Below are positions 16,299 to 59,536 of a stretch of 64,000 bases of DNA, piece by piece. Source of the stretch: Mobula hypostoma (Eukaryota); NCBI RefSeq assembly GCF_963921235.1, contig NC_086097.1, positions 162,690,001 to 162,754,000 of the forward strand, written 5' to 3'. The translations under genes and the position numbers were made by a program. The stretch's first letter is position 1; every line of letters begins with the position of its first letter. Below the pieces are notes generated by a model. The model did not search any database, was not told the origin of the DNA, and saw nothing but the letters and a program-made list of their open reading frames with translations.

Positions 16299-16514
16299 AC
16301 ACAAAATGCTGGAGGAACTCAGCAGGCCAGGCAGCATCAATAGAAAAAAGTACAGTAGACGTTTTGGGCTGAGACCCTTCACGACACTTCAGAGGAGTCT
16401 TGGCCCGAAACATCGAGTGTACTTTTTTTCCATAGATGCTGCCTGACCTGCTGAGTTCCTCCAGCATTTTGTGTGCGTGGCTTGGATTTCCAGCATCTGC
16501 AGATTTTCTCTTGT
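16299..16514 (+). mobile_element. Palindromic Penelope-terminus-derived short element (decayed hammerheads)
   Basis: Inverted arms acacaaaatgctggaggaactcagcagg.../...cctgctgagttcctccagcattttgtgt span 16299-16474, plus tail ccagcatctgcaga. Imperfect 14-bp TSD at 16286-16299 and 16515-16528. Confidence 0.8.
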
Positions 16515-16602
16515 TTGTGCAAAGGGTAGAGAAGTTTTCTGTGGTTGTTCCTCACTTATGCCTCTATAAATTGAGTTTATTTAATTTTGGAGTTGATGTT
16601 CA

Positions 16603-16920
16603 AGCATCAGAATCAGTACTAGGTTTATTATCACTGATATATGCCATGAAATGTATTGCTTGTGGCAGCAGTCCAGTTCAAGATGTGAAAAAATGACTAT
16701 AAGTTACAACAAATAAATAGTGCACAAATGGACTGGTGAGGAATGGATTTGTGGACTGTTCAGAAATCTGATGGTGGAGGGGAAGAACCTCTCCCTAAGA
16801 TGTTGTATATGGGTATCCAGGACATGCCCTCCTCTCAACACTATCACCTCCTTGATGGTAGGACTGAGAAGAAGGCATGTCCTGGATAGTGAATGATCAT
16901 TACCACTGTTGTAATCCTCT
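16603..16920 (-). mobile_element. Rex1/Babar-type LINE 3' fragment
   Basis: Minus-strand THIQHLRERFFPSTIRFLN; 3' tail seen as tcagaatcag...aggtttatt on the + strand. Confidence 0.6.
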
Positions 16921-17226
16921 TTGTGGTCCCTGAAAATCACAATTATTATTAATTTATTAAGTGGAACTGATCAAATGAAGTTATTTGTGTTGCTGAATAT
17001 GGGCAGGGTCTAACTGATGGAGGCAGAATTTTAGGGGTGAAGTTAAGAACACAAAACTAGTCAAAGTTAATGCACATCCTCCACAGTTACTGCTGGGTGA
17101 GTTGTTCTCTCTGTTAATCACAGACATAAAATTGTGTCAATCAATTGTGACATGGGTGTTGTGTATTTAAAATTACAATAATATTTGAGTATATGCGTGT
17201 GTTAATCAATGAATGTCATAATTGTC

Positions 17227-18048
17227 AGCTGAGTGTCATGGTGATCACCAGTAGATATCTGGTTTAACGCGTCAGTAAAAGAAAGACCCAATGATTCATA
17301 AAGTAAAGGTCAATATGCTCAGCTTTTCAAATTACCTGTGCTAATTTGAGTAGATTTTAGTTTCCTTCATGCTGTGTACTTCACTGATTTGGAAAGGGTT
17401 AGATAGCCTCCCTCTAGGGTTTTTCCAGTGTTGCTTTGAGCTTGTTGAAGGGTTATGCTGAATTAGGCTGAACTTCTGTCTTGTTGAAGAGAGTAAAGAA
17501 CCCTTTGTAATCCTCCAGAAGAGATTGAGTACGTAATGTTTGAGAATCTTTGGAAATAAAACTGAGCCATAAGAAATATCTTCATGAGAAATTAACGGTG
17601 TCTTGTACTTGCTAATTCACAAGTTTAGAAGTGCACTGGACAGTCAGGATTTTGTTTTTGTGGGCAGGCACCAGCTGTGTGACTTTCTCTGCAGTGCTGT
17701 AGCCTGTAGTGAATGAAGATGAGCCTTCAGTTAAAGGGCCCCTTTATTCTCCCTGCAGGAAGCTACGCTTCAGAAGGATGAGTTCATCTGCTTCACGTGA
17801 GCTACAGTGTCCACAGGTATTTGGCCGTTCCATATCTCAGGAATCTGTGGAGAGCTCCTCAATGGAGGACTTCTGGAGCGAAGTGAGAAGTATTAAGGAG
17901 AGCAGACAGAATGGACAAGAGGAACAGACACTAGTGGAAGTCAAGCCATCTGAAGGTGAGTTCTAGAGCTGAGTGTCATGGTGATCACCAGTAGATATAT
18001 GGTTTAATGCATCAGTAAAAGAAAGACCCAATGATTCATAAAGTAAAG
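17227..18048 (+). repeat. 82-bp direct repeat pair (17227-17308 and 17967-18048) flanking exon A
   Basis: agctgagtgtcatggtgatcaccagtagat...atgattcataaagtaaag occurs twice; 79/82 identical by eye. Confidence 0.92.
17759..17955 (+). CDS. ARHGAP28: Rho GTPase-activating protein, ARHGAP18/28/40 family (ARHGAP28-like), internal coding exon A (probable exon 2)
   Basis: Pyrimidine tract + ctgcAG acceptor (17757-58), GTGAGT donor at 17956. Encodes KLRFRRMSS...FGRSISQESVESSSMEDFWSEVRSIKESRQNGQEEQTLVEVKPSE, matching the family SMEDFW motif. Ends in phase 1. Paralog symbol is tentative. Confidence 0.88.
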
Positions 18049-18409
18049 ATGTTTTTCACACCACTTACACAACCTTATGTACTCACAAATGAAAGTGGAA
18101 AATATGTTCTACACTTTGACAAGTAGAAAGCTGCTCTGAATCAATAAATACTAAGATCAAATCCTGAGCCATTTATTGCCAGTGTCATATTCCTGCCATG
18201 CATCTTCAATATTTAATTCTGCAATGTACAGAAAGGAAGAACTATATTCAGGAGTAGTAAGCACTTGTGGCTATTATATATTTAAACTGTGGTTCTACAC
18301 TGTACTTTGAGATTCTTACGCTAGTGCATCACTATTTGGGACAGCCAAGTTAATTATTTTTAACCATACTGCCTATGTTGCTGTTACTTTCTTTGGATGT
18401 AATGGAGAA

Positions 18410-19680
18410 GCTGGATTGTGTTTGGAATCAGAGAAAATTGTCTGAGGTATTAAATGAGTACTCTGTTTTGGTATTTTCAGAGCAGAAGGACTTGGAGGAT
18501 AGTGAAAGCAGAGCGGGCCTGTTGGTATAATTTGAGATTAAGGGGCAGTTAGTGCTGGGTCTTCTGGAAAATATTAAGGTAGATATCCCAGAATATTGAA
18601 GGAAGCAAATGAGGAGAATGCTGGGGCTTTGACAAGGATCATGGTGTCCTCATTAGCAACAGGCGGGTATTTATATACATTTGGAAAGGTATAGTCTATT
18701 TAGGGAGAATCAGTATGGCTTTGTGGTGGGACAGGTCTTGTGTTACAAACTTGATTGAGCTTGATGAGGGTAAGGCAATGGGTGTTATCCAGGTGGACTT
18801 GAGAAAGACATTTGACAGGTCCCTCACGTTAGGTTGATTCAAAAGATAAAGATGTACATGGCTCCAGGGTAAATTGCAAGTTTGGATTTGGAGCTGGCTT
18901 TCCCGTTGAAGATAGAAAGTAGGCGCAGAAGGCTGTTATTCTGACTGGAGGTCTGTAACCTGGGTGAAGACTTGAGATTCTGCAGATGCTGGAAATCCTT
19001 AGCAACATGTACAAAAGCTGGAGGAACTCAGCAGATTAGCCAGCATCTATGGAAGGGGATAAACAGTCAGTGCTTCGGGCCAAGACAATCAGGACCAATG
19101 AAGGGCTTTGGCCTGAAAAACCAACTATTTCCCTCCATAGATGTTGCGTGACTTTCTGAGATCCTCCAGCCTTTTGTGTGTGTTGCTGTGACCAGGGATG
19201 TTGTGCAAAGATTGTGAATGGGCTTCTGTTGTTTGTGTCATATGATCAGTGATTTAGATGAAGACGTAGGTGGGCATACTAACAAATTTTTGAATGACAC
19301 CAAGATTTTTGCACTTGTGGATGAAGAAAAGAATGATCAAAGAATTCATAGATTTGGACAGAGAAATGGCAGGTGGACTTTAATCTGGGAAAGTGAGAGG
19401 TGTTGCACTTCAGAAGGTCAAATGACAGGAAAAAGTATACAGTTAATGATGGGCTCTTTAATAGCTCTAAGGTACAGAAAGATCTTTGGTCCAGTTTCAT
19501 AGTTCGCTGAAAGTGGCGACACAAGTGGATAAGGTGGTAAAGGAGATGTATGAAATGCCTGCCTTCATTGGTAGGAATGTTGAGTGTGGGAGTAAGGAGG
19601 TCATCCTGCAGCTACGTAAAACATTAGTCAGACTGTACTTGGAGTATTATATGCTGTTCTGGTTGCCCCATTACCGGAAG
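18410..19680 (+). mobile_element. CR1-clade LINE RT fragment (decayed)
   Basis: Remnants of QYGFV..RSCVTNLIE, VDLRKTFDRS, NKFLNDTKI, HSSLKVATQVDKVVK and KTLVRLYLEY. Confidence 0.75.
18965..19185 (-). mobile_element. Palindromic Penelope-terminus-derived short element inserted in CR1
   Basis: ctgcagatgctggaaatc tail on the left; arms acaaaagctggaggaactcagc / ctgagatcctccagccttttgt; imperfect 12-bp TSD at 18953-18964 and 19186-19197. Confidence 0.75.
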
Positions 19681-20434
19681 ATCTGTCCCAATGTTGGCTT
19701 GTGTGGCTCAGGAGGAAAGTTAAATATTGACTTAGTGAAACATTTTGCCGACTCACTAGGATACAAAAGAAAGCCATTCATCCCATTGAGCTCATGCCAA
19801 CTCTCAGAAGAATCCTGTTAATCCCATCATGTTGGTGTTCATCACATCGTGCACATTGAAGGCATGGTTCCAGTTATTAGATAGGAGCTCTTCAACCAAT
19901 GGAAAGCACTTCTACTTTTCTGTACCTTGAAGAAATTGAATTATTCTTTAGCCTCTCAAATTAAGCTGTCACAGACCTAGCTAATATGAATTCTCTTGGT
20001 CAATAGTCCTTGGACTCTAAGTATCGCTCTGATAAAGTTGCTCTGCATTTCTTCCAAGGAAAATCCAAATTACAATATTAAGAAAGGTAGAAAATCCTTT
20101 AATAACACTAATTTTGTGTGGCAAGATGTATCGTGCACAATATTCTGATGGAGGACCCCATCTTTCCCAAAAGGATATCCTGCATTCTCTCTTCTAAATA
20201 GTTAGTATATTGAGAGGGTGAGATGTAGAGGGTTGGGAAGAGCCTTGTGTCCACCACAAATGCTGGAAGTGGTTATCTGGGCCATAGGCTGCTGCATTGT
20301 GGTAATACAGGATGTGCAGCAATGCCATGACACACAAGTTGAAGCATTCTGAAGACTTTATTTTTTTCAGTTGTTTAATGCCTCCCTTATTCAGTGTTGA
20401 ATTTTCCAGTTAATTTACATGCCTTGTGTTTCAG

Positions 20435-20652
20435 AAGGGGAAATGGAAGCAGAGTGGCTTCAGGAGGTGGGATTATCCACTCTTGTCTCGGGTGCTGCTG
20501 GAGAGGATGGGATGGCTCTGCTGTCCACCTTGACCCGGGCTCAGGCCGCAGCTGTCCAGCGCCGACTGGACACCTACACTCAGACCACGAGGAGAAGGAG
20601 CAAGCAGCCGGTCCGAGATGTTCGAGACGTATTTGGTCTTACTGACCCTCCA
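20435..20652 (+). CDS. ARHGAP28: ARHGAP18/28/40-family RhoGAP, coding exon B
   Basis: tttcAG acceptor, GTAAGT donor at 20653. Phase 1 start fits exon A. Encodes EGEMEAEWLQEVGLSTLVSG...LLSTLTRAQAAAVQRRLDTYTQTTRRRSKQPVRDVRDVFGLTDPP, the conserved N-terminal block of the family. Ends in phase 0. Confidence 0.93.
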
Positions 20653-21024
20653 GTAAGTTCATGTCATGACCCAACATGAAGACAATTCAAGTTATTTGTA
20701 TCTATTGAGGTACTTTGCTGTACATAGATGTAACATTTTAATGCACAAATTAATGTGAGTAAGGTGGGCTGTAAATATTTAATAATATTATATCCAGGTA
20801 ATCGGAGGCGACTGGTGAGGTGTCCATCTATACAGTGCCCCTACGACCCGGGGGGTTGCGGAGTCCGTAACCATAACCTGTGAGATTTTGGTTGAGTGAG
20901 AAGCAGTGTCTGCGAAACCAGGGAATTGTTTTTAACAATTTTCATGTCGACCTAAGTGAGCAGATAGAGATATAGTCGATATCCCATTTAAAAACTGTAA
21001 TGTCTGGCATTATAAGAGATGAGA

Positions 21025-21858
21025 GATTGTGCAGATGCTGCCTTCCCATCTATCTTCATATCGGTCGTAAACTTGGCCACAAAGCCATCAATTCTGTCAA
21101 CCAAATCATTGACATATAACATAAGAAGAAGCAGTCCCAGTATTGACCCATGCAGAACAACTCTAGTCACCGGCAGCCAACCTAAAAAGGTCTCCTTTAT
21201 TCCTACTCTGCCTCCTGTCAGTAGCCAATCTTCTATCCATGTTAAGAGTCTTTCCTATAATGCCATAGGCGCTTATCTTGCTAAGCAGCCTCATGTGTGG
21301 CACTTTGTCAAAGGCCTTCTGAAAATCCAAGTAAACAATATCCACTGACTCTTCTTTGTCTATCCTGCTTGTTATTTCCTCAAAGAACTCCAACATGTTT
21401 GTCAGCCAAGGTTTTCCCTTCAGGAAACCATACTCACTTTGGCCTATACTGTCTTGTGCCTCCAAGTACTCTGAAAACTCATCCTTAATCATACATTCCA
21501 ATATCATCCCAACTACCAGAGAGTAAGGTTAACTAGCGTATAATTTCTTCTGCTTTCCTCCTTAAAGAGAGGAATGACATTGGCTAATGATTCTTGAAAG
21601 ATCATCAAGCCTCAAATTTCTCGCATTATGCTAGTGTCTTTCACAGCGGAGGCTGATTCAAAATACTTATTAAGTTGATACTTATTTCTTTGTCCCCCAT
21701 TACTTCTCTGCAGTGTCATTTTCCAGTGGTCCAATGTCTACTTACACCTCTATTTTACTCTTTATATATCTGAAAAAAACCTTTGATATTCTAAATTACA
21801 TTATTGGGCAGCTTACCTACATATTTCACCTCTTCTCTCCTTATGCCTTTTTTCAGTT
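21025..21858 (-). mobile_element. CR1-clade LINE RT fragment (continues at 24141-24410 beyond the Penelope insertion)
   Basis: Minus-strand YGFLKGKPWLTNMLEFFEEIT...VDIVYLDFQKAFDKVPH and GSILGLLLLMLYVNDL...VAKFTTDMKI. Confidence 0.88.
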
Positions 21859-22169
21859 ACACAAAATATTCTGCAGATGCTGGGGTCAAAGCAACACGCA
21901 CAAAACGCTGGAGGAACTCAGCAGGTTGGGCAGCATCCGTGGAAACGAACAGTCAATGATTCGGGCCGAGACCCTTCATCAGGACTGAAGAAGGAGGGGG
22001 CAGGGGCCCTATAAAGAAGGTGGGGGGAGGGTGGGAAGGAGAAGGCTGGTAGGTGCCAGATGAAAAAGCAGTAAGGGGAAAGATTAAGGGGTGGGAGAGG
22101 GGAAACAGGGAGGGGATAGGTAGGAAAGGTGAAGAAGGAATAGGGGAAAGCACAATGGGTAGTAGAAGG

Positions 22170-23764
22170 AGCTCATCCTCAGCCACAAAACTCATAATTC
22201 CCACACCCTGCACTGCTCGGTTTTATCTCCTCCCCAAGGTCCACAAGCCTGACTGTCTCAGTAGACCCATAGTTTCTGCCTGCTCCTGCCCCACCCAACT
22301 TGTATCTGCCTACCTGGACTCCATTTTTTCACCCACAGTTCAGTCCCTCCCCACCTACATCCGGGATACATCCCATGCCTTCCACCTCTTCAATAACTTC
22401 CAGTTCCCTGGTCCCGACCGCTTCATTTTCACTATGGATGTCCAATCCTTTTACACTTCTATTCCCCATGAAGAAGGCCTTAAAACCCTCCGCTACTTTC
22501 TGGACAATAGACCTCACCAGTTCCCCACCACCACCACCCTCCTCTGGTTGGAGGAACAGGTACTCACACTTAATGACTTCTCTTTTGGCTCTTCCCACTT
22601 TCTTCAGACCAAGGGTGTAGCTATGGGCACTCGCATGGGCCCGAGCTATGCCTGCCTCTTCGTTGGTTATGTGGAACAGTCTATGCTCCAAACCTATACT
22701 GGTACTGGTCCCCAACTTTTCCTTTGCTACATTGACGACTACATTTGTGCTGCTTCCAGCACCCATGCTAAGCTCATCAATTTCATCGACTTTGCTTCTA
22801 ACTTCCACCCAGCCCTCAAACTCATTTGGTCCATCTCGGACACTTCTCTCCCCTTTCTTGATCTCTCAGTTTCCATCTCTGGAGACGGTCTGTCCACTGA
22901 CATCTTCTATAAGCCCACTGACTCTCATAACAACCTCGACTATACCTCTTCCCACCCTTCCACATGCAAAAATGCTATTCCCTATTCCCAGTTCCTCCAT
23001 CTCTGCCGCATCTGCTCCCAGGATGAGGCTTTCCGTTCCAGGACATCTCAAATGTCCTCTTTCTTTAAGGGTCGTGGTTTCCCTTCTGCCGTCATCAATG
23101 ATGCCCTCACCCGCATCTCCTCCATTTCCTGCACTTCGGCCCTCACCCCATCCTCCGTCACCACAACAGGGACAGAGTTCCCCTTGTCCTCACCTACCAC
23201 CCCACCAGCCTCTGGATCCAGCACATTATCCTCCGCAACTTCCGCCACCTTCAACAGGACCCCACCACTAAGCACATCTTTCCCTTTGTACCCCTCTTCA
23301 CTTTCCACAGGGATCAGTCCCTCCGCGACTCCCTGGTCCACACGTCCCTCCCCACGGATCTCCCACCTGGCACTTATCCCTGTAAGCGCAAGTGCTACAC
23401 CTGTCCCTACACCTCCTCTCATGCCACCATTCAGGGCCCCAAGCAGTCCTTCCAGGTGAGGCAACACTTCACTTGTGAGTCTGTTGGGGTCATCTATTGC
23501 ACCCGGTGCTCCCGGTGTGGCCTCCTCTACATCGGTGAAACCCGACACAGATTGGGGGACCGCTTCGTCGAGCACCTCCACTCCATCCGCCACAACAGAC
23601 AGGATCTCTCAGTAGGCACCCACTTCAACTCTGCTTCCCACTCCCATTCAGATATGTCCATACATGGCCTCCTCTACTGCCATGATGAGGCTAAACTCAG
23701 GTTGGAGGAGCAGCACCTCATATACCGTCTAGGTAGTCTCCAGCCCCTTGGAATGAACATTTAA
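22170..23764 (+). pseudogene. Penelope-like reverse transcriptase + GIY-YIG endonuclease ORF (frameshifted)
   Basis: RT motifs FYLLPKVHKPDCLSRPIVS, TMDVQSFYTSIP, QTKGVAMGTRMGPSYA, YIDD, PFLDL, FYKPTDS. Frameshifts follow about 23155. GIY-YIG block VIYCTRCSRCGLLYIGETRHRLGDRFVEH...RLEEQHLIYRLGSLQPLGMNI. Confidence 0.92.
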
Positions 23765-24048
23765 TGCTCCAACTTCCGTTAATTCCCTCCCCCTCCTTTC
23801 CCCTATCCCAGTTTCACTCTGCCCCCTCCTTCAGCTGCCTATCACCTCCCTCATGGTTCTGCCTCCTTCTACTACCCATTGTGTTTTCCCCTATTCTTTC
23901 TTCACCTTTCCTGCCTATCACCTCCCTGCTTCCCCTCCCCCACCCCTTTATCTTTCCCCTTACTGGTTTTTCACCTGGAACCTACCAGCCTTCTCCTTCC
24001 CACCCTCCCCCCCCACCTTCTCTATAGGGCCTCTGCCCCTTCCCTGTT

Positions 24049-24086
24049 CAGTCCTGACGAAGGGTCTCGGCCCGAAACGTTGACTG
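24049..24086 (+). ncRNA. Minimal type I hammerhead ribozyme in the PLE terminus
   Basis: cagtc-CTGACGA-a-gggt(ctcg)gccc-GAAA-cg-TT-gactg: stem I cagtc/gactg, intact catalytic boxes, stem II, palindromic ACGT stem III. Predicted cleavage after 24081. Confidence 0.8.
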
Positions 24087-25029
24087 TTCGTTTCCACAGG
24101 TGCTGCCCGACCTGTTGAGTTCCTCCAGCGTTTTGTGTGTTGCCTTTTTTTCAGTTGTTTTTTGTTGGTTTTTTCAAAGCTTCCCAATCCTTTAACTTCT
24201 GACTATTTTTTGCTGTATTGAATGCCCTCTTTTTTTTTTGCTTTTATGCTGTCTTTGACTTCCCTTGTCAGCCATGGTTGCATCGTACTGCCTTCACAAT
24301 ACTACTTCATCTTTGGGATATTTCTATACGTCAACTTTGGAATTGCTCCCAGAAACTCGAGCCATTGCTGTTCTACCATCATCCTTTCTAGCGTCCTCTT
24401 TCAATAATTGCATGAGGAGGATTAGAAAGTGCTGTCATTTTGCTATCTGTGGTTTTGTGTTTGCACTAACCCATGGTTTCTTAGCTATTTCAATGGTATT
24501 GTGACAGATTTATATTTTTAGAGTTGATGTCTGTTGTATTCCAGCCTTGATGCCAGTTAACACTGGTAAGTGTACTTCAGATTTTCTCTCAACTCTGGGA
24601 GCGCACAGTAAAAGTAATTAATGACAGAAGCATCAGCTGAGCACAGACTTTCACCTTTTAGAAACAGTGGTGATTTACTGGCTCATGAAGCAGGTTGATG
24701 TGGTTTCCTTGTCAGGTCTGTTACTGAAGGCAGGACAGACAAAACTAAATGATCATAAAATGACTGAAGTATGGTTTTTCTGGCTTAAATTTCTTAAGAG
24801 ATTTCTTTTGCCCTATAGGTCCCTGCCCTTCACATACACATACAATATTTCTTTTAGATGTAGCAAATGTTTCTGCTGTAACCACACTTCCAGAATCCTA
24901 TGACATTCTGCATGAAAAAGATATTCCTCATCTTGTCTCTGACCTTGTACCTATTATTTTTTAAATCTACGTACCCTGATTTTGACCCTTCAGTGAAGAA
25001 AATAGGTCCTGAATGTTTACTTCATTTAA

Positions 25030-25261
25030 GTCCCTCATAATTTTCAACATCTCAATTAAATCTTACCTCAGCCTCCAGTGTGTTCTCATCTTTCCTGTAC
25101 ATGGTAATTAGCACTCTGCATAACTTGAACAGGGTTGTATGCCCTGTCACTGGCTGTCCACCCTGTTGGCAAGGTCTTTCATTGATTCGATTATGGTTAT
25201 TGGATTTATCGAGTGTACCTGCAAAAAAACAAAGCTCAGGGTTGTATATGATATATAGACA

Positions 25262-25337
<76 letters not shown>

Positions 25338-25412
25338 TATACATACGTACATATACATACACATACATACATAGATACACTTTGATAATAAATTTGCTTT
25401 GTATTTTGAACA
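25030..25412 (+). mobile_element. LINE 3' tail (Rex1/Babar-like) containing a microsatellite
   Basis: ctcagggttgtatatg...actttgataataaatttgctttg tail, similar to other Rex-type tails in the window. Confidence 0.45.
25263..25380. repeat. (CA)n microsatellite with degenerate CATA extension
   Basis: About 30 perfect AC units followed by imperfect CA/TA units. Confidence 0.95.
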
Positions 25413-26199
25413 TAATCTATCAGCTCAGATCTTTATGCCTGGGCTAATAAAGGGAAGTTTTCTATTTGCCTTATGAACCTGTACTTCTATATCTAAGACT
25501 TTATTGAAATGCAGTGCAAGGTCCCTCTGTTCCTCCTTACCATTTTTTTTTGTGTACATATTTGCCTCATGCCCCGTCACTTCATTAAAGCAGGTGGACC
25601 AAACTGTGTGGCAGCAGATGGTGCTCCAACACAGTTTAATCCTGATGTCTGGAGCTATATGTGGGATTTGCACAGTCTGTCTGTATCTATGTGGATTCAC
25701 CTTGGGAGCTACATCTGTTTGCTCCCACGTCCCAAGGATGTGCTGGTTGCTAAATCAGTGGGCCACTGTGTGTTGACAGGTGGATAGCAAGTGAATTGTG
25801 ATGGAGATGAGCATATGAGAGAGAAGTAAGGAGGTGAATGGAATTAACTGAATCACTCTAGAGCTAGCATGGAGTTGATGGGCCAAATCTATCTTATGAA
25901 AAAATGTAAAGAAAATTTGAAGTCTATAGAGTTCCTATTCACGAAGTTATTTTTTATTCTCTGCAAGTTATGTGCCAACACAAGCTTACCCTTATTCAAT
26001 GAGCTTTAGTTAGCACATCATTGACTTCCCTGGAACTGAATAACAGAGGGAGAGTTGAATGGACATGAAATGTCTGTTGGCTCTCTAGTGCTCACTAAAA
26101 CAAATAATAGTTTGCATGTTCCCTCGTATGTTAAGTCTAGTGTATCAAGTACTTTTGTCTGAAACTCTTTGCTTATCTGCACAAATTCTCCCAGGTTAG

Positions 26200-30159: not shown

Positions 30160-30930
30160 CCTTCTCCACTGTCACTGTTTGCCCAATGCAAGCTAGAGGA
30201 ACACCACCTCATATTTCGCCTAGGTAGTGTAGAGGCCAAAGGCAGGAAAGTGGTTTTTCAGTTTTAAGTAAAGCTCTCCTCTGGTAGCTTCATTCCCCTT
30301 CTGCATCACCAAGTTCTCACTCCTCCCCACCCACTCTCCTTACAATCCATCTCCAGTCTTACCATTTTTGTTCCCTTTCCTTCAAACCCTAGCCCTTCAA
30401 AAATCATCTTTAAATCCTCTTTCTCCTCATTCTTTCCACCCACTAAACACACAGTTCACCCATTGCACCACACTCCCTCTGCTATCTTCTATCTGTAATT
30501 CACTCTTCTCTAATGGTTCCCATTATCACCTCCAGTACTTCTCAGAGTCTAGCTCTAGCGTTTCACCTTTCCTCCCTCTGGTCATCTCTAACCTTCACGC
30601 TCTCTTTCTTGTCCCTTGCTCTGTTTTTTCTCTCCTTTTGTTTCCGTCTATCATCCACCTGCCACTGTCTCCCAACTCCACCCCACTCCCCTTTCTGGAG
30701 CAACCTGCTTGCCATCTTATACCACTTCTCAGTCCACCAGTCACCTTGGACTCCTGTCTTACCACCTCCATTCTCCTGGCCATCTTGCCTCTCCACTCTC
30801 AGTCCTGATGCAGGATTTTGATCCAAATCATTACAAATTTCTTTTCTTCCACTGCTGTTGCCTGAGCCATAGAGTTCCTCCAGCAGATGGTTTGTTGCTC
30901 CAGATTCCAGTATCTTCAGTGCCTCTCTGA
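30160..30930 (+). mobile_element. Old Penelope-like 3' fragment
   Basis: KLEEHHLIFRLGS at about 30190-30230, long pyrimidine-rich UTR, decayed hammerhead cagtcctgatgcagg at about 30800, and a gagttcctccagca...ccagtatcttcag tail. Confidence 0.7.
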
Positions 30931-34120: not shown

Positions 34121-34249
34121 GATCTTATTATTTTTTTGTTTTCTGGGATGCTAACCAGCTTAAAATTGTGATTGAAATGAAACTATATGCTTCCAGTGAA
34201 CTGGACAGATCTGATAATAGGTCATCAACTTGAAACACTACCCATTTTA

Positions 34250-34818: not shown

Positions 34819-35053
34819 GTTGCTGGTGAACGCAGCAGGCCAGGCAGCATCTCTAGGAAGAGGTACAGTCGACGTTTCAGGCCTAGACCCTTCGTCAGAT
34901 TGCTTGAATTTCCAGCATCTGCAGAGTCCTGATGAAGGGTCTCGGCCTGAAACGTTGACTGTACCTCTTCCTAGAGATGCTGCCTGGCCTGCTGTGTTCA
35001 CCAGCAACTTTGATGTGTATTGCTTGAATTTCCAGCATCTGCAGAATTCCTCA
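34819..35053 (+). mobile_element. Palindromic Penelope-terminus-derived element with hammerhead motifs on both strands
   Basis: Arms 34818-34898 and 34929-35009 are near-perfect inverted repeats. + strand CTGATGA...GAAACGTT; minus strand CTGACGA...GAAACGTC. 16-bp TSD (14/16) at 34803-34818 and 35054-35069. Confidence 0.88.
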
Positions 35054-35705: not shown

Positions 35706-36033
35706 CCCCAACCCCCAGGCCATGGACAGATACCGATTCGCGGAGAATGCAACGGTAGCCGGGAGGCACACAGCACATCTGTAAGAAAAATGCTGAAATA
35801 AACATGCTAATTAATTAGGTGCCGCCCGACACGTAATTGTCGGCCCAGATCAGAGACGACACAATTGAAAATCGTCTCTGATCTGGGCCAACAATTATGT
35901 GCCAGGTGGCACCTAATTAATTAGCATGTTTGTTTCAGCTTTTTTCTTAAAGATGTGCTGTGTGCCTCCTGGCTACCGCTGCACCCCTGCATGCTTCGCG
36001 GCAATGTATCAGTCAGTGGCCTGGAGGGTGGGG
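35706..36033. repeat. Long imperfect inverted repeat inside the Tigger-like element
   Basis: Core arms 35748-35859 and 35872-35983 with a 12-nt loop; weaker outer arms ccccaacccccaggcca...gatac / gtatc...tggcctggagggtgggg. Confidence 0.88.
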
Positions 36034-37480: not shown

Positions 37481-37993
37481 ACTCAGACCAGTGTCATCCA
37501 GTGAGTTGATAAGTAAGACTTGTGGTCCTGATGCAGTACTTAAACTCAAAGCATTGACAATGACTTCCCTCCCACAGATGTGCTCTATCAGGCAGATTGT
37601 TAGTGAGTCCATAAGTAAAATGGATCAATGGAAACCTATAGATCCTTGGTAACATCCTGACCAATAGGCATCTTTGGAATTGTTTGAAGTGGCTCTTATT
37701 TGGGAGTTCCTGTTTAGAAGACACATTATACTCATTGTTTAAGGAACAGCTTCCTCTTCTCTGCCATCAGATTTCTGAACAGTCTGAGCCTCACTCCACT
37801 ATTTTCACACTACTTGTTTAGTTATTTATCTTTATTGTAAGATATTATTTTTATGTATTGCACTGTGCTGCCACAAACAGTAAGTTTCTTGGCATATGTC
37901 AGTGATCATAAACTTGATTCTGAATCTGTGTCAAAAACCAGAATCAGTCATCATTTATCAACTCACACTGATGACATGTGATAAGCATTGCTG

Positions 37994-38095
37994 TCCTGGT
38001 GATGGGTCTCAGCCTGAAACATTGACTCTTTACCTTTTCCCTTAGATGCTGCCGGACCTGCTGAGTTCCTCCAGCATTTTGGGTGTGTGTTGCTA
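37994..38095 (+). mobile_element. Single-arm Penelope-terminus fragment with decayed hammerhead
   Basis: gtcctggtgatgggtctcagcctgaaacattgact...gatgctgccggacctgctgagttcctccagcatttt. Confidence 0.75.
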
Positions 38096-45770: not shown

Positions 45771-45799
45771 GGGGGGGGGGGGGGTTCACCGTTTACAAC

Positions 45800-49425: not shown

Positions 49426-50734
49426 TTTCTTTTTAAATCTTTTTATTGAATAAGTATACAAAAAGGTAAGCCATATAGACACTAATACACTGTTAGAATA
49501 TAATTAAATTACAGAAGATATTAATACAAAAGAAATAAAAAAATACTACAATGTAATTTAAACATAACATACCAAGGTAACATAATAGTATACTAATTTT
49601 TATATATATATCAATAGAGAAAAGGAAACCCCCCCCCCAAAAAACCCCCCACCGTGCAACTAACTAAAAGCAAAGCAAAGCAATGGGCTAACTTGAAACC
49701 AAACAGAGTTAAACTTAAAATCACGTCCTCAATCCCGACCTCCATTAAAAACAGTAAAAAAAACAAGAAGGGTATATATTACATTAAATGAAAATATTGA
49801 ATAAAAGATCTCCAAGTCTGTTCAAATTTAAATGAGTCATAAAGATTGCTTCTAATTTTCTCCAAATTCAAGCATAATATCGTCTGAGAAAACCAAAAAA
49901 AGGTAGTTGGAGCATTAAACTCTTTCCAATGTTGTAAGATACATCTTTTCGCCATTAAAGTAAGAAATGCAATCATTCTACGGGCTGAAGGGGAAAGATT
50001 ACTGGAAATTTTAGGTAGTCCAAAGATAGCAGTAATAGGGTGAGGAGAGATATCTATATTCAATACCTTGGAGATAATATTAAAAATGTCTCTCCAAAAA
50101 GTTTCCAAAGTAGGGCAAGACCAAAACATATGAGTTAAAGAGGCTATCTGCCCCGGACATCTATCACAAAAAGGATTAATATGAGAATAAAAGCGCGCTA
50201 ACTTATCTTTGGACATATGTGCTCTATGAACAACTTTAAATTGAATTAGGGAATGTTTAGCACAGATAGAGGAAGTATTGACTAATTGTAAAATCTGCCC
50301 CCAGTCATCCACGGAAATGGTAAACCCCAATTCCTGTTCCCAATCTACCCTAATCTTATCAAATGGAGCTTTCCTAAGTTTCATAATAATATTATAAATC
50401 ATAGCCGATGCACCTTCCTGACATGGATTAAGGTTAATTATAGTATCTAAAATGTATGTAGGAGGAAGCATTGGAAAGGAAGAAAGTATAGTACTTAGGA
50501 AATTTCTAACTTGTAGATATCTTAAAAAAATGTATTCTTGATAAGTTATATTTATTAGATAATTGTTCAAAAGACATAAGGGACCCATCTAAAAATAAAT
50601 CCAAAAACCGTGAAATACCCTTAGTCTTCCAAATTTGAAAAGCACGATTCGTAAAAGAGGGAGGAAAAAATATGTTACCTAAAATAGGAATCGCTAACCC
50701 AAATTGATTAAGATCAAAAAATTTTCTGAATTGA
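49426..50734 (-). mobile_element. L1-clade LINE, 5'-truncated (ORF2 C-terminal Cys/His domain + 3' UTR)
   Basis: QFKVVHRAH...CDRC...LTHMFWSC..LETFW in ORF 49779-50588; AATAAA and A-rich end; exact 10-bp TSD acaacttatc at 49416-49425 and 50735-50744. Confidence 0.9.
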
Positions 50735-53700: not shown

Positions 53701-53935
53701 CCTTCATTTCGCCATCCCATTCTGTAAGTTGAAGTTTTTTCAACATGTACTCTCTCAAGCTATTTAGTCTCTGAAGGGAATAAATAGCACGTGATAAGGC
53801 CCACAATTCTGTGTTTTGCAATTCTGAACGGATTAAAACATTAACAGGAAAATACTTCAATGGTAATTTTCATCCACAATTCATGCTTTTTGGTCTTTAT
53901 ATACTGTTTATGCGATAAAAATTGCTTTTTTTTAG

Positions 53936-54096
53936 GAGACATCAAAAATCGTGAAATTGAAAGCCAGCAAAGCAACACTGAAGAAACAGAGGACCTGAAG
54001 TGGGACATCCCCTATTCAGAGTCTCTGATGGCAGCTCAGAAGGTACAGGAAACCAGAACCAATTGTCCAAAGAAGCCCAACAGCACAACACTACCT
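53936..54096 (+). CDS. ARHGAP28: ARHGAP18/28/40-family RhoGAP, coding exon D
   Basis: tttttttttAG acceptor, GTAAGT donor at 54097. Encodes DIKNREIESQQSNTEETEDLKWDIPYSESL...PNSTTLP, resembling the family L-x-x-[DE]-[VI]-[SP]-[YF]-[SA]-E and TLP segments. Phase 1 in, phase 0 out. Confidence 0.82.
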
Positions 54097-54641
54097 GTAA
54101 GTTGGAAGACTGATTCTACTAAAGCTACTTTATCTAACAACTTTAATAGCAGATGAGTTGACTTGCATGATATGCAAGGCATGTTTAAGCTAAGGCCAGA
54201 TTTAAAATCAAAGCCTGATACCCTAACCAAGCTTCCTCTGCAATCTCTGTGCAACTACCAAAAATAAACCTAAAGCTGCTCACTTTCCAGTAAAGTGCCA
54301 TGTGAAAGAATTAAAGATGAATATATATCTCTTCATGAAATTGCCTGCTCATAAGCTTTTAACACTTGTCAAAAAGAATAAAAAGGAAATTTAAAATGTG
54401 CACATTTTGGGAATCTGAAATAAAACCTGAAATGCTGGAATTAGTTAGTGAGGCATCATTTGTGGAAAGAGGAACAAAATTGTTATTTTTTTTCTCAGAT
54501 ACCTTCTTCAGAACAGTTCTTTGAGCTGAAATATCTCTTTGCACAGTTGCTGCCAGGCCTGCTGAGCATTGAACATTGTTCTGTCAAAGGAGTTAGGAAT
54601 TTAAGGAGTTCACTAATTGTGTGGATCTGTTTCATTTTCAG

Positions 54642-54807
54642 AAATTCACCATTCCGAAAGACAGACTGGGGGTAACACGGATTGGGGATCTGTCCTGTCA
54701 AGATATGAAAAAGATCCACAACCTTGCTTTAATAGAGATAACAACTTTTTATGATGCACTGGGACTAGAGCTGAAGAGGAACAGGCCAGTGAGGGTTAAG
54801 GCAAAGG
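54642..54807 (+). CDS. ARHGAP28: ARHGAP18/28/40-family RhoGAP, coding exon E
   Basis: ttttcAG acceptor, GTAAGT donor at 54808, 166 nt. Encodes KFTIPKDRLGVTRIGDLSCQDMKKIHNLALIEITTFYDALGLELKRNRPVRVKAK (family GDLSxQDMKK motif). Phase 0 in, phase 1 out. Confidence 0.93.
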
Positions 54808-55179
54808 GTAAGTTTCCTACCATATACTCGTTACTCTTTCCTGTACTGCAGAGAGGCAAATTGCATAAGTTTACAAAGCTCTAGGATTTTAAATGATTAC
54901 ATTATGGCTACCGATGTTTTGGCACTTGTTTTGCATCTCAGTAGCATTGAGGGGTGTGTTCCAGTGAAGTAGCTAAGAGATTGAAGTGAGATCATCAAGG
55001 GCAACTCCTAGAAACATGAAAGGATGTTGAAAAAAGAATTTCAGGACAGGAATAAAAATAAATATAAGGAACGTGGAAGTCCTTCTGTCTGGTAATCTAC
55101 ATGCTCCATTATTGTACTTTGAGTGCCATTAAAATTTTTTACATTTTGCTGATAGATTTAAGGAAAATAGGACAAATTA

Positions 55180-55420
55180 AGACTTGCTTTTGTACAGCTG
55201 TCCCCATGCTTTAGCATCCCAAACTGCTTTATGGTTGATGAAATTCTGAAATGTGATGGACAATTTGCACATTGTGTTCTTCAACAAGTATCTGTTTTTG
55301 TCAGGCTACTGAGGGTCAATTATTGGTCAGGGTTTTGGGAATGGTCCTTTTTTTTTTAAATAGTACCATAGTATACATTATGTACACTGGGAGAGCAGAT
55401 GGGGCCTTTCACAGAATCAA
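55180..55420 (-). mobile_element. Possible ancient Deu-domain SINE (SacSINE/AmnSINE-like) remnant
   Basis: Weak recalled similarity (caatttgcacattg; aaatagtaccat...gagagcagatggggcct). Similar weak matches near 4810-4940 and 11830-11950. Confidence 0.4.
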
Positions 55421-56199
55421 TTTTGTTTTATAATCCTGCTAGACTGCTCAGGTCTCCTAAATTTAAAAAAATCTCCCTCAAGATATAATTGGCAGGTCAG
55501 CTACATTACTAAACTGTGAAACTCAATACCTAAAACTGTGAAGGATGCAGACTCAGTTGACAATTTTAAACGTTAGCACAGAACCTATTTATTTAACCTG
55601 ACATCTTTTTGTCTTTTATTCTTTACTTTTTCTCGGTTCAGGCTGGGAAAACCTGGGGTATGGGCATAGCCAAGCACACCGATTTCTCAATTGCTAGGAA
55701 CTTTCAGACAACGCTAGTGGTGTTTAGCATTGTGGCTTTCTGGAGATTTACATAAATATTGCTGTTTCAGCCTAATTGTTTAATGCTATCATGTCGTGAC
55801 TTTGAGATGATACCAATTATAGATATTTTTTTATTATCACGCTATCTTGATCTGCTATTCATTGTGTATTTACTTGCATGAGGGGATATTGTGCTATAAA
55901 CTGTTGATGAGGTTGTCCCTGTATGCTGTCATGTCAGTCTCAAGTTCCATTACTCAATAATATACATGCATTATGAATGTGTGTACATTTTTGGAGATGA
56001 CTATTTCATGCATGTCTTTTTTTTCCCCTCAACTGCTTGATTGGTCTCAGTTTTAAGTGGCTATAAATATTATTATTTTTATTATTGTGTCAGTGCAGCA
56101 CTCCTCCAGAACTCTATTTTGGCAATCTAGCTATTTTGTGCTAAAAGGTTTTGGATTGAAACTTTATAGTTCTGAAGCTGAGAAAACAAAATGAATTAG

Positions 56200-57754
56200 C
56201 CACAAATGACATTTTATTGGAAATGGGGGTGAAGGAATTGAATGGTTAAACCTGAGGGTGAAATCAAATCATTAGCAAGAGGTGACATGGGGTCAGAAGA
56301 TGTTGAATCATTGTGGATAGAACCAAGGAATTGCAAGGGTAAAAAGACCCTGATGTGAGTTGTATACAGACCCCCAAACAGTAGTAAGAATGTGCCCTAC
56401 AAATGACAACGGGAGATAGAAAATGCAAGCCAAAAAGGCAGTGTTACAATAGTCATGGGGGACTTCAATATGCAGGTAGATTAGGAAAATCAGATTGGTG
56501 CTGGATCCCAGGTGGAAGAATTTCTAGAGTGCCTATGAGATGGCTTTTTAGAGAAGCTTGTGGTTGAGCCCACTAGGGGATCAGTTATCCTGGATTGGCT
56601 TTTGTATAATGAACCAGAATTGATTGGAAGAGAACACTGGCAGGGATGACGGCAGAGCAGCAATGGCTGGAATTTCTGGAAGCAATTTGGAATTCCGTCC
56701 CAAAGAGGAAGAAATATCCTAAATATTCTAAAGGAAAGATGACTAACAAGAGAGGTCAAAGTCAACATAAAAGCCAAAGGGAGTGTATATAACAGAGCAA
56801 ACATTAGTGGGAAGGTAGAGGATAGGGAAGCTTTGAAAAACCAACAGAAGGTAATTAAAAACGTCATTAAGAAGGTAAAGATGGAATATGAAAGTAAGCT
56901 AGCCAATAATTTTAAGTAGGATACCAGAAGTTTCTTCAGATACATAAAGTGTAAAAGAGAGGTGAGAGTGGATATTGGATCGCTGCAGAATGATGCTAGA
57001 GAGATAGTAATGGGGGACAAGAATATGGTAATCAAACTGAATAAGTATTTTGCATCATTCTTCACTGTGGAAGACACCAGAAGTGTGATGGAAGTTCCAG
57101 GTGTCAGGGGTCATGAAGTGTGTGAAATTACCCTAACTTTTCAAAAACTGATGGGTCCCTGGACCAGATGGTATACACCACAAAATTCTGAAGGAGGTGG
57201 CTGATGAGATTGTGGAGGGATTAGTAATGATCTTTCAAGAATCGCTAGATTCTTGAATGGTTCTGGAAGACTGGTAAATTGCAAATATCACTCCACTCTT
57301 CAAGAAGGGAGAGGGGCAGAAGAAAGGAAACTATAGGTCAGTTAGTCTGACATCAGTGGTTAGAAAGGGATTGGAGTTGATTATTAAGGACGTGGTCTCA
57401 GGGAACTTGGAGGCACATGATAAAATAGGCCATAGTCAGCATGGTTTCCTCAAGGGAAAATCCTGCCTGAGAAGTCTATTGACATTTTTTTGAAGAATAA
57501 CAAATATGATAGATAAAGGAGAATCGCTTGATGCTTTGTACTTGGATTTTCAGAAGACCTTTGACAAGGTGCCACACATGAGGCTGCTTAACAAGCTATG
57601 AGACCATTCTAGCATGATAAAGCAGTGGCTGATTGGCAGGAGGCAAAGAGTAGGAAGAAAGGGAGTATTTTCTGGTTGACTGCTGGTCACTAGTGGTGTT
57701 CCATAGGTTTCTGTGTTGGGACTGATTCTTTTTATATTGTATGCCAATGATTTG
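56200..57754 (+). mobile_element. CR1 LINE (APE to RT), left part
   Basis: VVYRPPNS and IVMGDFN (APE); GNYRSVSLTSVV and LYLDFQKTFDKVPH (RT). Confidence 0.85.
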
Positions 57755-59536
57755 TCATAGTCATACTTTATTGATCCCGGGGGAAATTGGTTTTCATTAC
57801 AGTTGCACCATAAATAATAAATAGTTAAATAGTAATATGTAAATTATGCCAGGAAATAAGTCCAGGACCAGCCTATTGGCTCAGGGTGTCTGACCCTCCA
57901 AGGGAGGAGTTGTAAAGTTTGATGGCCACAGGCAGGAATGACTTCCTATGACGCTCAGTGCTGCATCTCGGTGGAATGAGTCTCTGGCTGAATGTACTCC
58001 TGTGCCCAACCAGTACATTATGTCAGGACGAAGGCTCTTGGCCCGAAACGTTGACTGTACCTCTTCCTAGAGATGCTGCCTGGCCTGCTGCATTCATCAG
58101 CAACTTTGATGTGTGTTGCTTGAATTTCCAGCATCTGCAGAATTCCTGTTGTTTACATTATGTAGTGGATGGGAGACATTGTCCAAGATGGCATGCAACT
58201 TGGACAGCATCCTCTTTGCAGACACCACCGTCAGAGAGTCCAGTTCCATCCCCACAACATCATTGGCCTTACGAATGAGTTTGTTGATTCTGTTGGAGTC
58301 TGCTACCCTCAGCCTGCTGCCCCAGCACACAACAGCAAACATGATTGCACTGGCCACCACAGACTCGTAGAACATCCTCAGCATCGTCCGGCAGATGTTA
58401 AAGGACCTCAGTCTCCTCAGGAAATAGAGACAGCTCTGACCCTTCTTGTAGACAGCCTCAGTGTTCTTTGACCAGTCCAGTTATTGTCAATTCGTATCCC
58501 CAGGTCTTTGTAATCATCCACCGTGTCCACACTGACCCCCTGGATGGAAACAGGAGTCACCAGTACCTCAGCTCTCCTCAGGTCTACCACCAGCTCCTTA
58601 GTCTTTTTCACATTAAGCTGCAGATAATTCTGCTCACACCATGTCATGAAGTTTCCTACAGTAGCCCTGTACTCGACCTCATCTCCCTTGCTGATGCATC
58701 CAACTATGGCAGAGTCATCAGAAAACTTCTGAAGATGACAAGACTCTGTGCAGTAGTTGAAGTCCGAGGTGTAAATGGTGAAGAGAAAGGGAGACAAGAC
58801 AGTCCCCTGTGGAGCACCAGTGCTGCTAAGCACTCTGTCGGACACACAGTGTTGCAAGCACACGTACTGTGGTCTGCCAGTCAGGTAATCAAGAATCCAT
58901 GACACCAGGAAAGCATCCACCTGCATCGCTGTCAGCTTCTCCCCCAGCAGAGCAGGGCGGATGGTGCTGAACGCACTGGAGAAGTCAAAAAACATGACCC
59001 TCACAGTACTCGCTGGCTTGTCCAAGTGGGTGTAGACACGGTTCAGCAGGTAGACGATGGCATCCTCAACTCCTAGTCGGGGCTGGTAGGCGAGCTGAAG
59101 GGGATCTAAGTGTGGCCTGACCATAGGCCAGAGCAGCTCCAGAACAAGTCTCTCCGGGGTCTATAGTCATTGAGGCCCACTGGGGCGCGGCGTCTTCGGC
59201 ACAGGGACGAGGCAGGACGTCTTCCACAGCACAGGAACCCTCCAGAGCCTCAGGCTCAGGTTGAAGACATGGCGAAGTACTCCACATAGCTGAGGGGCAC
59301 AGGCTTTGAGCAACCTGGTACTGACACCATCTGGTCCTGCAGCCTTGCTCGGTTTGAGACGTTTCAGCTGTCTTCTCACCTGTTCAGCTATGAAGCCCAC
59401 CGTGGTTGTTTCATGTGGGGACGGGGTATAGTCATGATAGCAGGTGGGGGGCTGTGAGGAGGGGTAGGAGGGGAGAGTGGAATATGTGTTGGTTGGGGGC
59501 CGACAACAGATGACTCGTGGGGGATGGGCAGGGGCC
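57755..59536 (-). mobile_element. Young Rex1/Babar-type LINE, 5'-truncated, inserted in CR1
   Basis: KAAGPDGV, MFFDFSSAFSTI, GAPQGTVLSPFLFTIYT, KFSDDSAIVG; tail aataaagtatgactatgac; short TSD atttg at 57750-57754 and 59537-59541. Confidence 0.9.
58024..58153 (+). mobile_element. Penelope-terminus-derived short insertion inside Rex1
   Basis: gacgaaggctcttggcccgaaacgttgactg...ccagcatctgcagaattcc; exact 10-bp TSD tacattatgt at 58014-58023 and 58154-58163. Confidence 0.88.

Follow-up and report, generated by a model that had tools for sequence, protein, structure and literature searches.

A 64,000-nucleotide stretch of the Mobula hypostoma genome (NC_086097.1, positions 162,690,001 to 162,754,000; hereafter the window, with coordinates counted from its first letter) carries short repeats, several of them palindromic, built around a hammerhead motif, and a coding Penelope-like element (PLE) that ends in the same module. 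The question raised by this locus is whether the short copies form a non-coding family of their own or arise during PLE integration. By its sequence, the module represents a Neptune-type PLE terminus that bears a minimal type-I hammerhead, and the short copies are very probably the shortest integration products of this very abundant PLE. They are likely to be independent products and not a separate element. As elements they are of an ordinary kind, with inverted pLTR, tail and minimal hammerhead all previously published. Less ordinary is the repeated stop of their arms just before the ribozyme motif, which may mark the RNA start.

Searches with BLASTN and with an HMM built from 10 window arms matched the module everywhere the first-pass annotation had placed it, namely at 16299-16514, 18965-19185, 34819-35053, 37993-38095, 58024-58153, 63176-63230 and both ends of the PLE at 21859-24140. 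HMM E-values range from 1e-9 to 1e-26, with 10 of the matched arms being the building set itself; the best control matches had E-values of 1.5 on the shuffled window and 4.6 on the reversed window. Two additional copies had gone unlisted. One is an old long PLE 3′ end (30181-30925, plus strand, E 3e-6) comprising an endonuclease C-terminal remnant, a pyrimidine-rich UTR, a decayed hammerhead at 30805 and a decayed tail. The other, at about 54400-54585, belongs to a diverged subfamily and is an old fold-back; when compared with three reference arms, each of its arms outscored 998-1000 of 1000 shuffles. The module is also present in tens of thousands of public contigs.

The layout proposed earlier for all copies needs some correction. 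The tail is missing from 37993, from 63176 (a plus-strand fragment of body and short end, without hammerhead) and from the right end of the PLE, and a strict descriptor finds only two intact hammerheads in the window (24054 and 34929). The proposed division into two subfamilies is borne out: both arms of 34819 and the copy at 58024 are mutually 90-92% alike, versus 42-74% to the other arms. In this window, subfamily 2 occurs as short copies only.

The coding copy (21859-24140, plus strand, 2.3 kb) is 5′-truncated and frameshifted, lacks a direct 5′ pLTR and matches the short fold-backs in its outer anatomy. Its inverted left arm (21859-22171, minus strand) contains the tail, the body, the hammerhead (C of CTGANGA at 21982) and ~185 nt of upstream pyrimidine-rich 3′ UTR, and is ~91% identical to the right end. 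The RT remnant (22172-23764, plus strand; RVT_1 E 9.6e-10) lacks ~265-285 N-terminal residues, has a frameshift near 23150 and reaches a stop at 23762. A GIY-YIG-type motif is recognizable by pattern, and the C-terminal part is 41-50% identical to relatives. Many of these relatives carry PF01541, and a Pfam search of the window’s own endonuclease frame gave no match. A CX3CxxC linker lies at residue 94 of the 23102 frame; a CX2-5CxxC linker between RT and endonuclease is a feature of Neptune and Nematis (PMC8557442). The nearest named proteins are uncharacterised ones from Chiloscyllium punctatum (65-68%). The RT with a C-terminal GIY-YIG, the linker, the inverted 5′-truncated copy with its one-sided tail and the variable TSD together identify the element, on sequence grounds, as a Neptune-type PLE.

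At the right end of the PLE lies an intact predicted hammerhead (24049-24086, plus strand; predicted cut after 24081), with helix I formed by CAGTC/GACTG, the core CTGACGA, an extra A, a 4-bp helix II, GAAA, a palindromic ACGT without loop III, and a GTT triplet. CUGANGA, GAAA, NUH, helices I and II, the extra base after A9 and the palindromic helix III are the features of the minimal type-I PLE hammerhead to which we assign it. Only one of the 10 short-copy arms retains an intact motif. In a comparison of 11 arms for compensatory changes in helices I and II, 75.6% of helix cells are paired compared with 76.9 ± 2.1 in the covariation shuffles, with 93% for helix II and 23-49% in slid controls. 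In contigs of the public runs X1 and X5, the third A of GAAA is present in ~97% of the depth at the hammerhead, and the GUC triplet region has its G and C in 47-49%.

Inverted insertions share one geometry. All five are head-to-head with an outer 30-40-nt tail on one arm only, an outcome with probability 0.03 if ends pick start sites independently at even odds, and the elements at 16299, 18965 and 34819 fold far better than their shuffles (0 of 50 as low for each). The arms had been described as meeting at the hammerhead; they do meet near the ribozyme, with the junction at its 5′ edge and usually inside the core. Numbering each arm from the C of CTGANGA (+1), the element at 16299-16514 consists of a left arm (16299-16381, minus strand) with the short end, no tail and a 5′ limit at ~+5, and a tail-bearing right arm (16392-16514, plus strand) with a limit at ~+6; neither core is intact. 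At 18965-19185, the left arm (18965-19095, minus strand) has the tail, a limit at -3 and a 4-nt deletion in the core region, and the right arm (19098-19185, plus strand) has the short end and a limit at +4.

For these two copies and 34819-35053, three short fold-backs with an extra tail on one arm had been proposed. The outer tails conform, but 34819 (subfamily 2) has an additional, central copy. Between its left arm (34819-34898, minus strand, limit +1, short end) and its right arm (34925-35053, plus strand, limit -4, intact hammerhead, tail) lies a plus-strand piece consisting of tail only (34899-34924), and the resulting tail-to-hammerhead joint creates a 120-nt partial tandem with a single hammerhead (34899-35053). 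A below-threshold mir-5681 match covers 34857-34970. In the old fold-back at 54400, the left arm (minus strand, +1 at 54511) has the tail, a CTGAAGA core and a limit at -3; the right arm is decayed and its 5′ limit uncertain. The centre is a perfect palindrome, AGAAC-A-GTTCT, on the A at -4. Two copies are single plus-strand arms: 37993-38095, with a limit at ~-3, the short end and a mutated core (CTGGTGA), and 58024-58153 of subfamily 2, with the tail, a limit at ~-3 (GT shared with the TSD) and a CT-to-AG change in the core.

TSDs of 10, 11, 12, 15 and 16 bp are clear in three and weaker in two of the nine elements, as scored against 400 random pairs. Those of 34819 (34803-34818/35054-35069, 16 bp, two mismatches) and 58024 (58014-58023/58154-58163, 10 bp exact) score 10, a value reached by 2 of 400 controls, and that of the PLE (21844-21858/24141-24156, 15 bp with a one-base T-run slip) scores 11 (1 of 400). 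When the 58024 insert is deleted in silico together with one TSD, a continuous 153-residue LINE-like frame reappears. Four copies had been credited with TSDs of 10-16 bp, and the lengths stand; the repeat at 16299 (16286-16296/16515-16525, 11 bp, one mismatch) is borderline with a score of 8 (19 of 400), and that at 18965 (18953-18964/19186-19197, 12 bp, two mismatches) is not significant alone, with a score of 6 (143 of 400). No TSD was found at 37993, 63176 or 30181, and only 7-mers at chance level at 54400. Within-element pairing of arms is clear only for the PLE and, together with 58024, for 34819, and the old arms of 16299 and 18965 are not each other’s clear nearest neighbours; the use of one RNA molecule per fold-back is therefore a tentative assumption.

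The 5′ limits of the arms fall within an 11-nt interval (-4 to +6) in six of nine elements and 10 of 14 arms (one uncertain). Under uniform truncation, this clustering has P ~5e-6 (300 nt) to ~1.5e-4 (150 nt), for nine elements only. It upholds the earlier suggestion of a stereotyped short PLE product that stops near the ribozyme. Because the stop lies 22-32 nt upstream of the predicted cleavage site, the ribozyme cut did not define these ends and the templates were uncleaved. The single arms at 37993 and 58024 and the head-to-tail joint at 34925 also end at this edge, so fold-back pairing alone is insufficient. We favour run-off at a defined, putative RNA 5′ end at an initiator-like TCAGTCC as the cause. 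Internal, initiator-containing pLTR promoters have been reported for other PLEs. The initiator consensus occurs 11 times per 1000 nt in the window, and helix I requires these same letters.

Joints in public data (four runs, all contigs, with an empty table of RNA molecule starts; coordinates relative to the reference PLE; the polarity of opposite-strand joints is not given) point to the same edge. One side lies at 21977-21989 in 10 of the best 15 of 61 joints, four of them at 21986 (-4); the binomial probability is 6e-10 on the joints listed and 0.002 if none of the other 46 counts. Tight joints start at 21985-21987 in five of the best 12 of 36 (3e-4 on those listed, 0.047 if none of the remainder counts). 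The head-to-tail joint 21986-21859, one of those at -4, occurs in five contigs of X1, three of X5 and one of X10. Joints of unknown middle can be inflated at 21987 because other subfamilies stop aligning to the reference there (414 loose ends in X1). In three listed joints, one side falls at 21949-21952, which is 2-5 nt past the predicted cut, so that a minor cleaved-template or snap-back class may exist. Depth over the hammerhead in the DNA-labelled runs is only ~1.4x that of the upstream UTR, and thus many copies read on past the edge.

These observations suggest the following route. The PLE endonuclease would cut the target with a 10-16-nt stagger, matching the TSDs, and both 3′-OH target ends would prime reverse transcription on uncleaved PLE RNA. 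The near start would be the GU-rich end, ~85-95 nt after the core, and the far start the tail end 30-40 nt further on, giving the head-to-head arms and one-sided tail; the start sites are modelled on an Anolis PLE in vitro, where a pair of internal RT start sites bounds the tail, cutting and extension affect both strands, and the main template is uncleaved RNA (PMC11167929). Priming on the terminus nearest the RNA 5′ end would lead through the hammerhead to run-off at the helix I 5′ edge (about -4), taken as the RNA 5′ end with the A of TCAGTCC as the simplest start. The two cDNA ends would then be joined with a loss of 0-10 nt, often through the local quasi-palindrome. A single primed end would yield a single arm, an occasional jump to another tail would yield the 34899 insert, and priming at the downstream terminus of a long RNA would yield the long copies (21859, 30181). 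We consider this whole account, in which ORF-less integration products arise by dual priming and run-off at the RNA 5′ end, probable.

A tentative extension, which we regard as possible, is that the short copies are captured ‘strong-stop’ cDNAs. PLE mRNA would start at an initiator right at the 5′ edge of the hammerhead, a dimeric RT-endonuclease would prime both target ends at two sites shortly downstream and run off the RNA 5′ end, and a full-length pLTR-ORF-pLTR would form only after the short cDNA jumps to the terminus copy at the RNA’s 3′ end, as in retroviral first-strand transfer. Failed jumps would leave the fold-backs and single arms, and jumps to the wrong molecule the tail-to-hammerhead joints. 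If true, a single mechanism without ribozyme cleavage would account for the inverted 5′ copy, for the tail on one side only and for the regeneration of pseudo-LTRs.

The main competitor of run-off, which we think rather unlikely, keeps the PLE origin and dual priming and lets the quasi-palindrome TCAG-TC-CTGA (-6 to +4; GTC-CT-GAC in subfamily 2) set the junction, as cDNA ends anneal or one snaps back whatever the template start. By length and all but two letters, the centre of 18965 fits an overlap at TCAG/CTGA; the CT-to-AG change at 58025 is what a micro-inversion of the GTC/GAC loop would give; the palindromes reported at inverted PLE junctions have been interpreted as self-priming (PMC3846280); and in DNA-labelled runs the depth of the upstream UTR comes close to that of the hammerhead. 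However, a palindrome does not predict stops at -3/-4 in single arms and head-to-tail joints (37993, 34925; 21986-21859), the centre of 54400 is joined at -4/-3 without a TCAG overlap, and the left arm of the long copy runs past the quasi-palindrome to a joint 185 nt upstream.

It is improbable that an inverted pLTR-pLTR-ORF-pLTR plus tail lost its ORF by recombination between direct pLTRs, leaving a fold-back in the original TSD. That full structure is typical, recombination or deletion has been invoked for solo pLTRs (PMC3846280), and preserved TSDs and one-sided tails would be accounted for. Yet the direct repeat would be only ~95 nt, the sole coding copy here has no direct 5′ pLTR, and the boundary would still require a fixed RNA 5′ end. 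Precursors also seem scarce, since ORF depth (22180-22310) is 21-28x below that of the UTR in DNA-labelled runs, a weak point given that contig depth is not copy number.

Somewhat less credible still is self-amplification in the manner of a SINE or retrozyme, with ~120-130-nt RNAs, perhaps circles, reinserted in trans by the PLE enzyme. The first-pass annotation had raised an amplified non-coding family, and the restriction of subfamily 2 to closely alike short copies and the recurring head-to-tail joints (34925; 21986-21859) would suit one. Animal retrozymes are said to derive from pLTRs (bioRxiv 10.64898/2026.07.22.740005). Non-autonomous PLEs exist in Chlamydomonas. The drop in depth at the edge is steeper in RNA-guessed runs (7-9x versus 1.4x in DNA-labelled runs), though these are contigs and no measure of expression. 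The junctions nevertheless speak against amplification: all four short fold-back centres differ, an outcome that the first-pass annotation had named as favouring independent truncations; two have the tail on the right arm and two on the left; and the contig joints listed are many, each at a depth of 5-50 versus ~1,000,000 for the module (DNA-labelled), although short contigs could miss a junction of high copy number. Single-arm masters are conceivable. The hammerhead is of the minimal PLE type and broken in nine of 10 short-copy arms, and a circle predicts longer-than-unit copies of variable length, of which there is one case. A tandem retrozyme is ruled out by these junctions and broken motifs and by the absence from the 64-kb window of any array with two or more complete hammerheads. 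The palindromic shape and 200-240-bp size recall a MITE whose terminal inverted repeats are the arms, but this reading is rejected as scarcely conceivable because TSDs vary from 10 to 16 bp and are not fixed at 2 or 8 bp, outer ends are ragged and asymmetric, single-arm copies occur, and the module is continuous with an RT and GIY-YIG-type frame in a 2.3-kb coding copy of the same outer anatomy.

The copies are of value because they form a very large natural archive of PLE integration events. Should the pile-up at -4 hold across the genome, it would map the RNA 5′ end, show copying of uncleaved RNA in vivo and allow simple counting to test dual priming and strand transfer; if our account holds, the copies would be ‘strong-stop’ cDNAs that bear on pseudo-LTR regeneration. 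For annotation, such repeats risk being mistaken for MITEs or microRNA hairpins.

Among known systems, inverted-pLTR PLE insertions likewise have head-to-head termini, a palindromic or overlapping junction and a one-sided 30-40-bp tail (PMC3846280, PMC8557442). Their TSDs are ~8-10 bp versus 10-16 bp here, and the copies described here differ in having no ORF between the arms and in that both arms end at one place, the helix I 5′ edge. The Anolis carolinensis element Poseidon (PAc) resembles our element in its hammerhead ~100-150 nt upstream of two tail-bracketing RT starts, its uncleaved RNA template and the extension of both strands (PMC11167929). It belongs to another clade without the linker zinc finger, its start sites are described as AC-rich and lie within the ORF whereas ours are GU-rich in the ORF sense, and neither fold-back products nor a fixed 5′ stop are described in the cited parts of that report. 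Minimal hammerheads of metazoan PLEs share the 4-5-bp helix I, the extra base between 9 and 10.1, G10.1-C11.1, the palindromic 15.2-16.2 and the lack of loop III, and are mainly dispersed single motifs (PMC4209133). Schistosoma hammerhead pairs on opposite strands 100-700 bp apart have already been noted, with a helix II of 7-8 bp in Schistosoma families versus 4 bp here; in its cited sections, that survey includes no cartilaginous fish and maps no boundaries (PMC4209133). Animal non-LTR retrozymes are similarly non-coding and pLTR-related, with type-I hammerheads and long TSDs (PMC7229834; bioRxiv 10.64898/2026.07.22.740005). They form tandem arrays in which the hammerheads are canonical or at least two are complete, and they have circular RNA, whereas the copies in Mobula are dispersed inverted or single units whose hammerheads are minimal and mostly broken.

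Every copy of the hammerhead module reported by the first-pass annotation was confirmed by sequence search and by an HMM built from 10 arms. The module, the terminus of a probably Neptune-type Penelope-like element (PLE), comprises a hammerhead core, a body, a short CCAGCA-type end and an optional outer tail. Besides recovering the known arms, the HMM adds matches at 30804-30891 and 54532-54566, while its best match in shuffled and reversed windows reaches only E 1.5. The former closes a long decayed PLE 3′ end (element 30181, named like the others by its start) that begins in the endonuclease C-terminus. The latter belongs, as right arm, to the old fold-back 54400, in which the left arm has a CTGAAGA core and a tail. 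The window thus holds nine elements with 14 arms.

Most of these elements stop at nearly the same inner position, the 5′ edge of the hammerhead. Counting the C of CTGANGA as +1, the arms are limited at about +5 and +6 in 16299, at −3 and +4 in 18965, at +1 and −4 in 34819, and at about −3 in 37993, 58024 and the left arm of 54400, whose right arm has an uncertain limit of −4 or −5. Among the other four arms, both of the coding PLE (21859) and that of 30181 reach far upstream, and 63176 starts in the body. Six of nine elements ending within an 11-nt span has a probability of ∼5e-6 to 1.5e-4 under uniform truncation. Because cleavage is predicted after +28, the arms limited at −4 to +6 were copied across the cut. 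None of the 14 arms begins at +29, and cleavage-defined ends are rejected for the window.

Public contigs aligned to the PLE left arm show a similar clustering. Ten of the 15 joints listed (61 in total) have one side at 21977-21989, four of them at 21986 (−4), and five of the 12 tight joints listed (36 in total) start at 21985-21987, although other subfamilies also cease aligning at 21987. Also against this clustering, one end of three listed joints lies 2-5 nt beyond the cut. A proposed CAG microhomology at opposite-strand joints was dropped, as the overlap there is 0 and the joint table gives no polarity for them.

Fold-back arms (those joined head-to-head in inverted pairs) share their stopping point with single arms and head-to-tail joints, which favours a putative RNA 5′ end over pairing at the quasi-palindrome as the determinant of the limit, even though 18965 and 58024 show the palindrome shaping some joins. 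The A of TCAGTCC, a word that fits the initiator consensus, lies at −4. This consensus occurs 11 times per kb and the same letters also form helix I, and TCAGTCC is a candidate initiator offered as a lead only. Internal promoters with initiator-like words in the pseudo-LTRs of other PLEs are described in the portions consulted of PMC2377424 and PMC3846280. Recombination to solo pseudo-LTRs and SINE-like re-amplification are less probable alternatives, and each would need a fixed 5′ end as well. A 3′ splice site that sets the limit was also considered: a CAG-terminated pyrimidine tract lies immediately before the hammerhead core at 24030-24053 and 21983-22005, and the Penelope intron of D. virilis ends at helix I (PMC4209133, in part). 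However, splicing predicts ends at −2 and a common upstream exon, whereas the arms keep −3 or −4 and have no common upstream sequence; such a site may at most contribute to the limit.

The putative RNA 5′ end concerns the inner limit; the outer ends follow a different pattern. In each of the five inverted insertions the arms are head-to-head and only one of them carries the outer tail, the right one in 16299 and 34819 and the left one in 18965, 21859 and 54400. One-sidedness in all five has a probability of 0.03 by even-odds chance. Outer ends fall into two groups, one 2-17 nt past the first CCAGCA and the other ∼16-26 nt past the second. Both follow a CCAGCA word able to pair with an upstream GATGCTG or TGCTG (for example, 34975-35045), a pairing with weak covariation that may possibly form a docking structure for reverse transcriptase (RT). 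A staggered target cut would leave two inward-facing 3′-OH ends, and priming from both would yield exactly the head-to-head polarity.

The coding PLE (21859-24140) has the same outer anatomy. Its left end repeats the 3′ end in inverted orientation, with 91% identity over ∼285 nt, and bears the tail; its right end lacks one. The element is 5′-truncated and frameshifted near 23150, and cannot be the enzyme source; it gives an RVT_1 match and carries both a CX3CxxC linker and a GIY-YIG-type motif. Linkers of the CX2-5CxxC class mark Neptune and Nematis elements (PMC8557442, in excerpt). Among named proteins, the RT at 22161-23120 is closest to uncharacterised ones of Chiloscyllium punctatum (65-68% identity), which points to a cartilaginous fish as the most likely host.

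Target-site duplications (TSDs) of 10-16 bp had been assigned to four copies. When candidates were scored against 400 random pairs, three proved clear: 16 bp at 34819, 10 bp at 58024 and 15 bp at the PLE. The 11-bp candidate at 16299 is borderline (equalled by 19 of 400 controls), the 12-bp candidate at 18965 is not significant alone (143 of 400), and the remaining four of the nine elements have none. The variable TSDs exclude a MITE. With the 58024 insert removed, a 153-aa frame is continuous again, which sets the limits of that insert; the empty site of 18965 likewise reads through, in a frame that is presumably a CR1-type RT region. The 34819 insert lies ∼90 nt inside another element with a CAGG-C-run end, from 34730 onward, which we assume to be Tigger/pogo-like. 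A separate palindrome at 35748-35983 (112-nt arms, 91% complementary, 12-nt spacer), unrelated to the module, may be part of it. Other repeats in the window include inverted LINE-like RT stretches at 58521-59162 and 63359-64000 (642 nt, 97% complementary, 4.2 kb apart), the second of which runs off the window end, and a minus-strand LINE C-terminal remnant at 49779-50588 (269 aa, zf-RVT domain).

The first-pass annotation also raised the prospect of one amplified family. A single amplified element is contradicted by the centres of the four short fold-backs, all of which differ: 16299 has an unmatched 10-nt spacer, 18965 an overlap at TCAG, 34819 an insert of tail only, and 54400 a palindrome on a single A. 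Many joints also occur among those listed from contigs, each at a depth of 5-50. Since the window has no tandem array, the copies are not retrozymes as defined in the accessible text of PMC7229834 and bioRxiv 10.64898/2026.07.22.740005.

The module family is plainly huge. Contigs aligned to 541 nt number 47,812 and 38,974 in two DNA-labelled runs (X1 and X5), and 3,824 and 3,804 in two runs guessed to be RNA (X10 and X17), the counts covering four of 24 listed runs. Depth in X1 and X5, which is no copy number, runs to millions over the body versus 13-43 over the flank. In these runs depth over the upstream UTR comes close to that over the hammerhead (ratio 1.4) and exceeds that over the RT stretch 21-28 times; long copies are therefore common too. 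The depth step at the edge is steeper in X10 and X17, but this is not taken as evidence of expression because the body-to-hammerhead ratio is also raised there and contigs give no levels. One X17 contig joins 21926 to 21859, module body to tail end, at depth 1155 with seven letters between, and could represent a highly expressed tandem or small circle. Pattern scans for further loci returned 0 and 0 in viral contigs and 0 in GTDB contigs; the one match among metagenome contigs looks like GC-rich coding sequence of bacteria and is attributed to chance.

In its intact form the hammerhead combines helix I (CAGTC/GACTG) with CTGAYGA, a single extra A, a helix II of 4 bp, GAAA and a palindromic ACGT that lacks a loop. 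A strict descriptor is passed in the window only at 24054 and 34929, both with GTT at the cut. In X1 and X5 contigs ∼97% of depth carries the full GAAA, and 47-49% carries the GUC region's G and C, a pattern consistent with a canonical motif that has undergone CpG decay. Covariation is not demonstrable among 11 arms. The consensus fold of six tail-bearing arms contains helix II as well as a long helix between body and tail; 3 of 25 pairs show changes on both sides, a weak signal. Six module stretches folded as single strands (z −1.44 to 0.75) lend no support to special stability, and Rfam yielded no hammerhead family at E 5 and only hairpin matches below threshold. Ribozyme action by fold-back copies is improbable, because their transcripts would pair arm to arm.

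The window insertions are real and very abundant minimal PLE insertions, and their kind is known. The passages seen of PMC8557442, PMC3846280 and PMC8969392 describe PLEs as typically having inverted copies, tails and junction palindromes. The accessible literature (Dfam, Repbase, subscription papers and figures being outside its scope) contained neither ORF-less PLE fold-backs with a fixed helix I stop, nor a strict one-sided tail, nor a Mobula family, although the bioRxiv retrozyme supplements, with one chondrichthyan, may hold the repeat. The fixed helix I stop and the strict one-sided tail bear on pseudo-LTR regeneration. The intact motif shares its features with the PLE minimal hammerheads of PMC4209133, the consulted part of which regards dimers as necessary and describes Schistosoma hammerhead pairs on opposite strands, 100-700 bp apart. 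In the Anolis PLE, according to the available text of PMC11167929, two RT start sites define the tail, both strands are cut by the protein and then extended by it, and uncleaved RNA is used; this pair of start sites matches the two groups of outer ends observed here.
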